Origin: a virus
Taxonomy: Duplodnaviria > Heunggongvirae > Uroviricota > Caudoviricetes
Virus record (IMG/VR): IMGVR_UViG_2630968543_000005
Strand: one strand, 5' to 3'
DNA: 42,783 nucleotides
A program made the position numbers and the translations under genes. Under the pieces are notes generated by a model. That model had not been told where the DNA came from. It ran no database searches and saw only the letters and a program-made list of their open reading frames with translations. Shown piece after piece: positions 3,950 to 38,576 of this stretch; position 1 is the first letter of the stretch, and every line of letters starts with the position of its first letter.

Positions 3950-4011
3950 GTTGGTTTTTCTCCACGGATTTACTGACAACCGAAGCCCTGACTGTTCCCG
4001 CAGTTGGGGCT

Positions 4012-4233
4012 TCACTGTTTTTGTAAGTCACTGTAGCTATAAAGCCACTGACCACTCATTTTTGATTTGATTGACTCTACTGAATCACGGCAAGGAATAA
4101 TTCCACCTGACATCATTCTGATCTCCGTAAATTCACCACTCCTTATCGACTCAATGCCATTAACGTTAACTAAAGATTTACCTCTACCAAGTGCATTCTC
4201 ATAGCCAATCTCATCAACCTCGATAAACTTCAT
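4012..4233 (-). CDS. Hypothetical small protein between arc and ant
   Basis: 73-aa ORF, ATG overlaps arc stop (ATGA), GAGGGGA RBS; no recognisable family. Confidence 0.35.
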
Positions 4234-35602: not shown

Positions 35603-35773
35603 ATGCAACAGTTCGCTATTGCAGGGGCGGCATCGGTTCGCCCTTTCAACCCGATTTTATCGGTACAGCATTCACGAAAAAATATTTTAACCGGAGCAGA
35701 CTTTAAACAACCAAGAATGAAAAGTTTGCTCGAAAAGCTTTGGGATATTTTGAAACAACAAGGCCGCCCATGA
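35603..35773 (+). CDS. cIII: CIII-like protease inhibitor
   Basis: 56 aa MQQFAIAGAASVRPF...SLLEKLWDILKQQGRP; resembles lambda CIII (MQYAIAG...WKRLIDIL); AAGGAG RBS; below ORF track cutoff. Confidence 0.65.
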   Translation: MQQFAIAGAASVRPFNPILSVQHSRKNILTGADFKQPRMKSLLEKLWDILKQQGRP

Positions 35774-35928
35774 GTTTTACAGATAACTGGTCAGACGAAG
35801 AATTCATTCGTCAGATGAAAGAATTAATCGGTAACGAAGGAGATATTCATGTCACTTGCAACCACAGTGAAGGAGAGCAAGTTACAGAGGCGCATGTACA
35901 CGCAGAAAGCTCTCTGGTATCGCCATAA
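35770..35928 (+). CDS. Hypothetical small acidic protein at the kil position
   Basis: 52 aa, ATG overlaps cIII stop (ATGA). Confidence 0.3.
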   Translation: MSFTDNWSDEEFIRQMKELIGNEGDIHVTCNHSEGEQVTEAHVHAESSLVSP

Positions 35929-36027
35929 TGGTGACCGCGAAGGAATGCGGGTATGCCTTAATTTGTCCAGAGTCGAAGTATTAAATCAGCGTTATTTCCT
36001 TGGTCCATGTCCATTCTGAGGTGAATT

Positions 36028-36735
36028 ATGGATTTAAATAAATTCGATGAGCCATTCAGCCCTGAAGATATTGAATGGCGAATACAGCAAAGCGGTAAAA
36101 CACGCGATGGCAAGGTGCGGGCTATGGTGCTGGCTTATGTCACGAACCGGGCAATCATGAAACGCCTGGACGATGTTTGCGGCAAAGCAGGATGGCGCAA
36201 TGAATACCGCGATATTCCCAACAACGGCGGCGTTGAATGCGGCATATCAATAAAGATTGATTCCGAATGGGTAACCAAATGGGATGCTGCTGAAAACACG
36301 CAGGTAGAAGCCGTCAAAGGTGGTCGTTCCGGTGCAATGAAGCGTGCTGCCGTTCAGTGGGGAATCGGTCGGTATCTGTATAACCTTGAGGGAGGTTTCG
36401 CACAAACATCTCTCGATAAAAAGCAGGGGTGGCACAGGGCAAAACTGAAGGATGGAACAGGATTTTACTGGCTCCCTCCATCGCTGCCGGGATGGGCAAT
36501 CCCAGCATCAGATAACAAACCATCACCAGAAAATACCAACCAGAAATCTCCATCGGTTGACTGCGAACAAATCCTGAAAGACTTCAGCGATTATGCAGCG
36601 ACAGAAACTGACAAGAAAAAACTCATCGAGCGTTATCAGCGTGACTGGCAATTAATGGCTGGCAACGAGGAGGCGCAGGCTAAATGCGTTCAGGTAATGA
36701 ACATCAGAGTTAACGAACTAAAACAGGCGGCATAA
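36028..36735 (+). CDS. Single-strand annealing recombinase with P22 Erf-type C-terminal domain
   Basis: 235 aa; C-terminal ..ILKDFSDYAATETDKKKLIERYQRDWQLMAGNEEAQAKCVQVMNIRVNELKQAA matches P22 Erf C-terminus as recalled; N-terminal two-thirds differs; GAGGTGA RBS. Confidence 0.65.
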   Translation: MDLNKFDEPFSPEDIEWRIQQSGKTRDGKVRAMVLAYVTNRAIMKRLDDVCGKAGWRNEYRDIPNNGGVECGISIKIDSEWVTKWDAAENTQVEAVKGGRSGAMKRAAVQWGIGRYLYNLEGGFAQTSLDKKQGWHRAKLKDGTGFYWLPPSLPGWAIPASDNKPSPENTNQKSPSVDCEQILKDFSDYAATETDKKKLIERYQRDWQLMAGNEEAQAKCVQVMNIRVNELKQAA

Positions 36736-37203
36736 ATGTCTCACTTGGACGGAATTATTAAAAGATTCGAGTCCAGCTACAAAGTTAATGAAACAACAGG
36801 ATGCTGGGAGTCTACCTATTCAAAAAACAAAGGAGGATACACAAAATTTGTAGCCTTTGGCGTAACAATGCTTTCTCATCGGGTTGCTTTTGAGCTTTAT
36901 CACTCCCCCATTCCATCTGGGAAGATGGTTTGCCACAAATGCGATAACCCATGCTGCGTTAATCCTGAACATCTCTTTTTAGGTAGCGCGCAAGAAAACA
37001 TGGACGACAAGATAGCAAAAGGAAGGCATCGTGGAGCCAAGAAAGGTCATGCTCATCATGGTGCAAAATTAACAGAGTGGCAGGTTATAGAAATTAGGAA
37101 AAGACTCTCTGAAAAAGAGAGTCAGTACAAGATAGCAAAAGACATGGGTGTATCTCAATCAATTATAAGCAACATAAAAACTGGCAAGAGGTGGAGCAAA
37201 TGA
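36736..37203 (+). CDS. HNH endonuclease
   Basis: 155 aa; [30 protein letters not shown] motif; inserted between recombinase and ssb. Confidence 0.7.
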
Positions 37204-37706
37204 GTTCTCGCGGGATAAATAAGGTGATTATCCTTGGTCGGGTAGGACAAGACCCGGAAGTTCGATACTCACCATCAGGAACAGCGTTCGCTAACCTGAC
37301 AATAGCAACGTCAGAACAATGGCGAGATAAAAATACTGGCGAGCAAAAGGAATTGACTGAATGGCATCGTGTTGCTGTATCCGGGAAACTGGCTGAGGTC
37401 GTGGGGCAGTATGTGAAAAAAGGTGATCAGATTTATTTCGAGGGAATGCTGAGAACCAGAAAGTGGAAAGACCAGTCAGGGCAAGACCGTTACACAACCG
37501 AGGTTCATGTCGGAATTAATGGCGTGATGCAAATGCTTGGCGGCATTGGCGACAGCAAACAACAAGCAGCCAGCAGGCAATCACAGAAGCCACAGCAGCA
37601 ATCATCACCAGCACAACACAACGAACCTCCGATGGATTTTGACGACGATATACCCTTTGCGCCAGTAACTCTCCCCTTCCCTCGTCACGCTATTCACGCA
37701 ATTTAA
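37200..37706 (+). CDS. ssb: Single-stranded DNA-binding protein
   Basis: [41 protein letters not shown].. OB-fold and acidic C-terminal tail [11 protein letters not shown] 37200 overlaps HNH stop. Confidence 0.85.
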
Positions 37707-37714
37707 GGACTTAC

Positions 37715-38263
37715 ATGAATCACTTAATGGTTGACCTTGAAACAATGGGCAACGGGCCATACGCGCCAGTTATTTCTATTGGGGCGGTATTCTTTGACCC
37801 GAATACCGGAGAAACAGGAGAAGAGTTCTCGGTAAATATCTCGCTTGAGTCATCAATGCGATATCGGGCGCGTCCTGACGCTTCAACGATTTTATGGTGG
37901 CTGGAACAGAGTGAAGAAGCCAGAAAATCGCTAACCAGCAACACTCAGGAGCTTTCAACGGCTCTTTCATGGTTATCTGAATTCATCATAAAGAACGCTA
38001 ACCACAAATTCGTTCAGGTTTGGGGGAATGGAGCATCATTTGACTGCGTTATTCTCCGCAACAGTTATTCGCTGACAGGGCAGCCAGTTCCGTGGCAGTG
38101 GTGGAATGACCGCGACGTAAGAACAATCGTCGAACTTGGGAAGGTAATAGGATTCGACCCTAAGCGAGATATGCCATTCAAAGGAACTCGCCACAACGCG
38201 CTTGATGATGCCATTCACCAAGCCAAATACGTTTCAGCGATCTGGAAAAAGTTAGCTAAATAA
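37715..38263 (+). CDS. DEDDh-type 3'-5' exonuclease-like protein
   Basis: 182 aa; MVDLETMG.. and ..HNALDDAIHQA.. motifs. Confidence 0.55.
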   Translation: MNHLMVDLETMGNGPYAPVISIGAVFFDPNTGETGEEFSVNISLESSMRYRARPDASTILWWLEQSEEARKSLTSNTQELSTALSWLSEFIIKNANHKFVQVWGNGASFDCVILRNSYSLTGQPVPWQWWNDRDVRTIVELGKVIGFDPKRDMPFKGTRHNALDDAIHQAKYVSAIWKKLAK

Positions 38264-38279
38264 TCAACAGGAGAAAACC

Positions 38280-38576
38280 ATGCCAGCGCCTCTGTATGGT
38301 GCGGATGACGCGCGCCGCTGTTCCGGCAATTCCGTATCGGAGGTGCTGGATAAGTTCAGAAAAAACTACGATCGGATAATGTCGCTACCGCAGGAAACGA
38401 AAGAGGAAAAGGAATTTCGCCACTGTATATGGCTTGCAGAGAAAGAAGAACGAGAGCGAATTTACCAGACATCAATCCGACCATTCCGCAAAGCCACATA
38501 TACCCACTTCCCTGAACATATCGACCCGCGCCTGCGTAATTACCGCTCACGTTATGGTGCTATCAGTAATGACTGA
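38280..38576 (+). CDS. Hypothetical protein
   Basis: 98 aa, AGGAG RBS. Confidence 0.4.
   Translation: MPAPLYGADDARRCSGNSVSEVLDKFRKNYDRIMSLPQETKEEKEFRHCIWLAEKEERERIYQTSIRPFRKATYTHFPEHIDPRLRNYRSRYGAISND

Follow-up and report, generated by a model that had tools for sequence, protein, structure and literature searches.

The window analysed here, the entire 42,783-nucleotide stretch of IMG/VR record IMGVR_UViG_2630968543_000005 (one strand, 5' to 3'), comes from a P22-like phage or prophage of E. coli: its structural half resembles CUS-3, HK620 and their relatives, and its early region matches Sf101, Huey and others. Our subject is a run of its plus strand in which open reading frames (ORFs) for a single-stranded DNA annealing protein (SSAP), an HNH endonuclease, the single-stranded DNA-binding protein ssb and an exonuclease are closely packed, with abc2 next downstream; this is the early-left recombination module of the phage (Table 1). 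The HNH gene opens straight after the SSAP stop codon (TAAATG), and at its far end the ssb ATG at 37200 overlaps its own stop, TGA at 37201-37203 (ATGA). An earlier note, made from the letters of this DNA alone, had described the 235-aa protein, the HNH gene immediately behind it and the overlap of the HNH stop with the ssb start, and all of these are confirmed; it had further read the SSAP as a chimera bearing the C-terminus of P22 Erf and the HNH gene as an insertion. Below we argue that the module combines a modular SSAP with what is probably a free-standing homing-endonuclease cassette dedicated to the 5' end of bacterial-type ssb genes.

Table 1. Features of the recombination module, in window coordinates. 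The ssb start is taken as ATG 37200; the ORF listing gives an upstream GTG at 37191, but the ATG matches the starts of homologous ssb genes.
Feature	Position	Strand	Evidence
SSAP, 235 aa, Sf6 gp28 type	36028..36735	+	ORF; Sf6 gp28 match; PHROG 1097
Rad52-type annealing core, SSAP residues 1-150	36028..36477	+	PF04098, residues 4-136, E 1.7e-25; AlphaFold2/Foldseek
Low-complexity disordered linker, SSAP residues ~157-175	36496..36552	+	pLDDT <50 at 162-175
Three-helix C-terminal domain, SSAP residues 176-235	36553..36735	+	73% to last 60 residues of P22 Erf
HNH endonuclease gene, 155 aa	36736..37203	+	PF13392, 51 bits
HNH_3 domain, HNH residues 48-89	36877-37002	+	PF13392
Helix-turn-helix-like region, HNH residues 111-146	37066-37173	+	Pfam score below threshold
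Inferred mobile cassette: HNH ORF past the common ATG plus new ssb start ATGAGTTCTCGCGGGATA	36739..37217	+	Alignment of occupied and empty sites
Phage ssb, 168 aa, N-terminus MSSRGINKV	37200..37706	+	SSB PF00436, E 1.7e-36
ssb 3' tail after the DDDIPF acidic tip; unoccupied form of the second HNH insertion point	37662..37706	+	
DnaQ/Rv2179c-like 3'-5' exonuclease of the recombination module	37715..38263	+	PF16473, E 2.9e-73
Abc2 anti-RecBCD protein	38280..38576	+	PF11043, E 3.1e-61

The HNH protein belongs to HNH_3, with a score well above the family cutoff of 24.8 bits, and residues H48, C66, H67, C69, N71, C74, N76, H79 and N88 are invariant across the HNH clades at 100%, 74% and 62% identity. 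The GC content of the gene is 40.8%, against 46-50% in the adjoining genes. A promoter search at the gene returned no promoter-like site beyond chance, Rfam returned no intron or other RNA family in the region at the gathering threshold, and a sequence search of the PDB returned no solved relative of the protein. An intron- or intein-encoded HNH is ruled out, there being no Rfam intron and HNH and ssb being separate ORFs, each with its own stop and start.

That the gene is an insertion, as the earlier note had proposed, follows from its absence at the same site in mEp235, HK75, Huey and Sf6, in each of which the SSAP stop codon is followed directly by ssb; such empty sites recur in hundreds of genomes. 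The empty site reads TAA ATG GCA AGC AGA GGC GTA AAT AAG in mEp235, Huey and Sf6, and mEp235, HK75 and Sf6 carry the junction …AAACAGGCGGCATAAATGGCAAGCAGAGGCGTAAATAAGGTGAT…. In the window the 15 nt that follow the ATG (GCAAGCAGAGGCGTA) are exchanged for the HNH ORF together with ATG AGT TCT CGC GGG ATA, so that ssb codons 2-6 are replaced and the protein begins MSSRGI where the empty site encodes MASRGV. Compared with mEp235, the window ssb has ten mismatches in nt 4-16 and only four in the other 489 nt (binomial P ~4e-18), a concentration which places the first ssb codons within the inserted segment. Past the first 16 nt the two genes are 99% identical; occupied and empty junctions differ by the cassette alone, and their flanks are near-identical.

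Two more distant copies bear on where the insertion took place. In Vibrio phage 1.079.O a 13-codon ORF beginning ATGGCATCACGCGGA, which encodes the canonical ssb start MASRG, lies 5' of the HNH gene (L007:2943-2981), and in a genome assembly (L094:2501-2530) the HNH protein itself begins MASKGN. Both look like remnants of an original ssb start, and suggest insertion within the first ssb codons.

The cassette is polymorphic for presence and absence. At the DNA level it was found in none of 50,697 phage records, the best protein match among which was 62% identical and came from a Vibrio phage. Prophages of 39 out of 5426 complete E. coli genomes contain it, among them the ybhC prophage of E2348/69, where RefSeq already annotates the order Rad52 - HNH - ssb - anti-RecBCD; the ORF is intact and 99-100% conserved in E. 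coli copies. The SSAP-ssb junction in either form occurs in ~387 E. coli genomes, a count that covers occupied sites too (pieces were joined across the insertion), which gives an occupancy of roughly 10%. In IMG/VR, where loci were seeded with the SSAP tail and were thus blind to HNH, 9 of 73 junctions are occupied, and 60 of 64 loci, on two ssb alleles, have one and the same empty-site sequence. The tail-seeded scan of viral contigs yielded 80 near-identical loci, a sample that is fit for counting occupancy and not for measuring diversity. Together, the cassette occupies ~10-12% of otherwise near-identical SSAP-ssb junctions.

Its genomic company identifies the gene to which the HNH lineage is attached. 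All seven sampled HNH lineages (51-100% identity; from Enterobacteriaceae, Vibrio, Shewanella and metagenomes) adjoin the 5' end of ssb with overlapping stop and start codons, and the gene on the other side changes from one to the next. Upstream of the 62% relative of the Vibrio phage, which shares the ATGA overlap with ssb, stands a plain Erf lacking the tail; upstream of the 74% relatives of Cronobacter/Citrobacter type, either Erf or Rad52 with the tail; upstream of two relatives at 60%, a 143-aa protein of unknown function (Shewanella) and an RdgC-like protein (the assembly carrying L094); and upstream of two metagenomic relatives, a 334-aa unknown protein beside YqaJ (58%) and a Sipho_Gp157 protein (51%). 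The linkage, strict throughout this clade, ends at its edge: a tblastn table of homologs at or below 47% identity has ssb within ~1.2 kb in only 3 of 54 cases, four further contexts of such homologs included no ssb-linked gene, and a scan of a genome collection with the HNH alignment recovered only relatives at or below 45%, again without linkage to ssb.

Within the clade HNH and ssb have moved separately. HNH proteins are 97-100% identical where the attached ssb proteins are 71-94% identical, and identical HNH copies stand beside ssb alleles that are only 71-78% identical. The sharpest case is a pair of IMG/VR loci from other enterobacteria, L032 and L033, whose HNH proteins are 100% identical, whose ssb proteins are 77.5% identical, and whose SSAP cores are of Erf type and Rad52 type, respectively. 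In E. coli the identical cassette is found on both mEp235-type and Sf6-type ssb alleles, the switch falling within ssb nt 17-29; in one hybrid (L016) ~80 nt of mEp235-type ssb precede the change of allele. We considered L016 as a homing footprint and downgraded it: because similar hybrids occur at empty sites, it is consistent with co-conversion but is not evidence for it. It is the start of ssb to which the HNH gene is tied, and not the recombinase, and the element is independent of both flanking genes.

On this evidence the HNH gene is best read as encoding a homing endonuclease of the free-standing kind, bound in its location to the ssb 5' end and probably selfish. The cassette takes over the former ssb start codon, and with it the translational coupling to the upstream gene, while its 3' end brings a replacement start (ATGAGT TCT CGC GGG ATA, encoding MSSRGI). 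With that replacement ssb would still be made, through ATGA-coupled reinitiation, and an essential downstream gene would stay expressed without an intron. The enzyme would nick or cut relatives that lack HNH in or near the conserved junction …ATGGCAAGCAGAGGCGTAAATAAGGT…, recombinational repair would copy the cassette in, and the rewritten first codons would render occupied alleles resistant. In its most complete form the proposal is that the HNH lineage of Enterobacteriaceae, Vibrio and Shewanella phages consists of homing endonucleases whose recognition site is the 5' coding end, nearly universal, of bacterial-type ssb (MASRGVNKV), and that it invades an essential gene without an intron by start-codon takeover and a recoded spare N-terminus with an ATGA restart, the recoding conferring immunity; this specific scheme we put forward only tentatively, as a possible account. 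The gene itself would be a new and well-delimited one of free-standing homing-endonuclease type, with an ssb-grafting design, and our search of the literature found no paper describing an ssb-linked HNH cassette.

Several observations weigh against the homing interpretation or parts of it. The putative target site was placed from the insertion point alone, and in phages the cuts made by free-standing endonucleases often lie hundreds of bases away from the endonuclease gene (PMC2988022). The ATGA overlap dictates codon 2 of the window ssb (AGT), arginine remains AGA in the Vibrio copy, and the other recoded codons could have been inherited from the first donor and not selected for immunity. Of 34 occupied sites, 30 share a single ssb background, and much of their spread may be vertical; mEp235-to-Sf6 hybrid ssb alleles are found at empty sites as well (L120, L154). 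Lastly, tight packing and a deeply conserved HNH-ssb linkage would also fit a functional partnership, and some HNH genes of recombination modules are regarded as legitimate members of them (PMC12315714).

That last point can be put as an explanation in its own right: HNH would be a working nuclease of the module, making nicks or ends for SSAP and SSB, and would be kept next to ssb through their joint action. The gene is translationally coupled at both ends, its adjacency to ssb is conserved down to 51% identity over several genera, and the E. coli ORF is intact and nearly invariant; in 30 of 35 occupied E. coli-type modules there is no other recognisable nuclease, and tightly packed HNH genes of lambdoid recombination modules have been judged probable legitimate members, with the warning from the same source that HNH genes are mobile and that position is a weak guide to function (PMC12315714). 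Against it, only ~10-12% of near-identical modules have the gene, and HNH is found both with and without the DnaQ-like exonuclease. Its low GC content relative to its neighbours, the presence of identical copies beside diverged ssb genes and beside SSAPs of differing core type, and the change of upstream partner gene in every lineage are further points against it, and we consider this explanation unlikely.

A second possibility is that the cassette is mainly a weapon against other phages or the host, cutting the 5' end of ssb in co-infecting relatives or in the host chromosome, with the resident protected by its recoded start. The uniformity of the empty site on both ssb alleles would suit such a weapon, as would the start of the chromosomal ssb of E. 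coli K-12 (L184:326-355, ATGGCCAGCAGAGGCGTAAACAAGGTTATT), which is identical to the empty phage site (L001:2467-2496) at 27 of 30 positions, and the occupied allele, in which 10 of the first 16 positions are changed; in T4, free-standing endonucleases are known to cause marker exclusion (PMC2988022). Exclusion and homing, however, are outcomes of one cut, and because of this the two are inseparable on present data. Moreover, an enzyme that attacked the essential ssb of its host would be toxic to any lysogen, but HNH has been kept in prophages of the 39 complete genomes; as the main role of the cassette we regard this as distinctly improbable. Whatever that role, if HNH recognises the ssb start then the K-12 host ssb is a near-cognate site.

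The other end of the phage ssb tells a parallel story. The window SSB has an OB-fold match to PF00436 (124.8 bits) and the acidic motif DDDIPF, after which it continues for 15 residues. In E. coli SSB the corresponding motif, DFDDDIPF, is the free C-terminus used for partner binding; in the window protein, with its extension, this tip may be concealed, or its set of partners may differ. A Vibrio phage SSB has a comparable extension. In Sf6 and Huey ssb ends right after the DDDIPF tip and is followed by an HNH gene, Sf6 gp26 (L003:2950-3429) and its Huey counterpart (L002:2703-3170), and this gene closes with the same 45 nt as the window ssb (100% identity). This 3' HNH appears to have been inserted after the DDDIPF codons, taking over the former ssb tail. 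We considered whether it might be the window HNH gene relocated and rejected this, as the two have no sequence similarity. Among 76 loci collected blind to HNH, 50 have neither gene, 17 the 3' HNH only, 8 the 5' HNH only and 1 both. Taken with the data from the 5' end, this makes both ends of the phage ssb places where HNH cassettes insert and become merged with its codons.

The SSAP is the second modular component. Its core matches Rad52_Rad22 at 90.2 bits (cutoff 20.3), whereas P22 Erf (from NC_002371) matches Pfam ERF (PF04404) at 157 bits; the window protein has no match to PF04404 at E <= 0.01, and the tail alone, which lies outside Pfam, is common to the two. On sequence, then, the window SSAP is 'Erf-like' in its tail only. 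In BLASTP only residues 157-235 align with P22 Erf, at Erf residues 134-205 (51 of 79 identical, E 6e-31), and no similarity was detected in the N-terminal two-thirds. The earlier note was right that these two-thirds differ from Erf, and the pairwise alignment it had suggested is confined to the C-terminal ~60-79 residues. Its statement that the tail matches 'almost residue for residue' is overstated: the match lies far beyond chance, but identity is 73% across the last 60 residues and 43 of 56 across the last 56.

An AlphaFold2 model of the SSAP (mean pLDDT 85) has a confident beta-sheet/helix core, a disordered segment at 162-175 and helices reaching residue 234; the tail helices are at 179-192, 196-209 and 214-234, and modelled as a domain alone the tail reaches pLDDT 95.6. 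The N-terminal fold, for which the earlier note had proposed a check, is SSAP-like, since in addition to the Pfam match Foldseek aligns the core model with yeast Mgm101 and human RAD52 (probability 0.97-1.0, E 9e-5 to 1e-3). The Rad52-fold core presumably forms rings and anneals single-stranded DNA. The tail matched no Pfam family, structure searches with the tail alone gave no informative relative, and a PDB sequence search found no relative of the SSAP.

As a protein the SSAP was known before: Sf6 gp28 has 231 of its 235 residues (98% identity), and both are members of a large named family. Its DNA is ~97% identical to that of mEp235, mEpX2 and HK75, the full-length protein matches PHROG 1097 ('Erf-like ssDNA annealing protein'), and a large protein database holds 5478 homologs, many of them labelled 'Rad52/Rad22 family DNA repair protein' by NCBI. 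Judged by these matches, the chimeric SSAP is an established, very common and already named family. This, together with the attachment of HNH to ssb and the rewriting of the first ssb codons by the cassette, goes beyond what the earlier note had said. The label itself deserves correction, as many records say 'Erf-like' for what is a Rad52-core SSAP with an Erf-type tail.

The domain shuffling that the same note had proposed finds support in a second tail variant. Erf-core L032 (Pfam ERF) and Rad52-core L033 (Rad52_Rad22) have this variant in common at 69% identity, and it is only ~48-50% identical to the variant of the window and P22; the Erf cores of L032 and of P22 type are themselves very distant from one another. 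Tails thus group across core types, which implies at least two exchanges and a tail tree that is incongruent with the core tree. In every comparison, whether with P22 Erf or with the L032 protein, similarity opens just past the low-complexity linker, which for this reason is the likely joint. These comparisons support repeated domain shuffling at or near the linker, in which the tail would have been swapped between Erf-type and Rad52-type cores more than once. Salmonella phage SPN9CC and records of the 103203_sal5 type have genes annotated 'erf' with 91-94% DNA identity to the SSAP region, followed by abc1 and not by ssb; the Rad52-core/Erf-tail gene accordingly occurs in the P22-style erf-abc1 order too, making the 3' end of the tail a mosaic boundary.

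The tail is narrowly spread. An exhaustive search of 1.84 billion representatives found 14 clusters, mostly fragments, and a profile search of a 5.8-billion-protein database found only 21 short fragments, sets which demonstrate a narrow distribution of the tail but from which no census of the attached cores is obtainable. That the tail is instead an ancestral feature, retained by Erf and Rad52-type SSAPs as members of one Rad52-like superfamily, would agree with the view of Erf, Sak/Rad52-like proteins and Redβ as a single structural superfamily (PMC2896510; PMC9870868) but is scarcely credible given tails 69-77% identical on cores without any BLASTP similarity, tail variants that group across core types and not with them, a distribution very narrow beside that of the cores, and a Vibrio phage Erf with no tail at all.

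What was shuffled would be a partner-docking module, with the Abc2/RecBCD axis, SSB and a small cofactor as candidate partners. In an Erf-like SSAP studied by cryo-EM the N-terminal domain forms a ring, with a flexible three-helix C-terminal domain at its periphery (PMC13017515); a survey of lambdoid recombination modules from 2025 considered shuffling of partner-interaction domains to be the probable basis of module promiscuity and left the analysis undone (PMC12315714). Of the 104 tail-bearing loci with sufficient flanking sequence, 101 have abc2 downstream, among them P22, which is without ssb; the loci are closely related, and on that account the co-occurrence counts as weak evidence for Abc2 as the partner. 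In the tail nature has run a clean domain-swap experiment, placing a single 60-residue module on annealing cores of two very different kinds, and this gives a handle on the docking partners of SSAPs in vivo, the question that limits the portability of recombineering systems.

Other features of the window complete the picture of the module. The DnaQ-like exonuclease gene is facultative: among loci with enough flanking sequence, 5 of the 35 occupied by HNH have it, as do 20 of the 63 that are empty. Just 5' of the SSAP gene, two small ORFs (35740-35928 and 35849-36019) overlap one another in different frames, and both match PHROGs labelled 'recombinase', being homologs of Sf6 gp30 and gp29. In P22 the position of the first is occupied by Arf, the Erf cofactor. 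A P22 Arf homolog upstream of the SSAP was rejected, since the first small ORF has in common with Arf only the 7-residue motif (F/W)SDEEFI; it may be an analogue of Arf. Elsewhere in the window, a sar antisense RNA at 3950-4016 (Rfam RF00262, 87.7 bits) shows that the phage has an immI (ant/arc/mnt) region of P22 type.

If the homing interpretation is correct, the phage ssb would be a doubly parasitised hotspot, with one HNH at its 5' end and an unrelated one at its 3' end, and HNH genes in lambdoid recombination modules would be parasites and not module nucleases. Recent surveys count such genes as possible module nucleases (PMC12315714); for the type described here the data point to a selfish element. 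Were the target the conserved ssb start, this would be a compact case of a homing endonuclease entering an essential gene without an intron, and HNH could supply a new site-specific nicking or cutting enzyme.

Among known systems the window SSAP is closest to Sf6 gp28 and its homologs in mEp235, mEpX2, HK75 and E. coli prophages, which share its core-linker-tail architecture and its place upstream of ssb and abc2; unlike the window, Sf6, mEp235 and HK75 have no HNH between SSAP and ssb. P22 Erf is likewise a two-domain protein with a hinge, encoded by an early-left operon upstream of abc2, and is related through the last ~60 residues; it differs in its ERF core, which has no sequence similarity to that of the window protein, and in its surroundings, where erf is accompanied by abc1 and is not followed by ssb. 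A functional analogy may be drawn with lambda Redβ, whose small, helical C-terminal domain is, like the SSAP tail, appended to an annealing core, although no sequence or structural match between the two was found. In Redβ this domain is dispensable for annealing; it binds λ Exo and the C-terminal tail of SSB (cited in PMC12315714).

For the HNH gene a parallel in design is the second HNH of the same module, Sf6 gp26/Huey CDS0028, which is also grafted on ssb codons and also sporadic (18 of 76 loci), but sits at the other end of ssb, where it captures the old tail and supplies no new start. In family terms the window protein resembles the HNH_3 phage endonucleases in its conserved His, Asn and Cys residues and its helix-turn-helix-like C-terminal region. 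The family includes I-HmuI-like intron-encoded nicking enzymes, to which we presume the window HNH to be akin; those enzymes reside in introns, whereas here there is no intron and ssb is a separate, intact ORF. In genetic behaviour it compares with T4 SegG and the HNH-type MobE, promoterless ORFs between conserved genes that are read from the host operon, occur sporadically and have a conserved neighbour gene as their target (PMC2988022). SegG is inserted between T4 genes 32 and 59 and targets gene 32, which encodes the T4 single-stranded DNA-binding protein (PMC2988022), and by analogy offers a conceptual precedent for an ssb-targeting HNH, although SegG is a GIY-YIG enzyme and gp32 is unrelated to bacterial-type SSB. 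The T4 enzymes usually cut far from their own genes and leave the start of the neighbouring gene unaltered; the window cassette, by contrast, is grafted on ssb and supplies its N-terminus.

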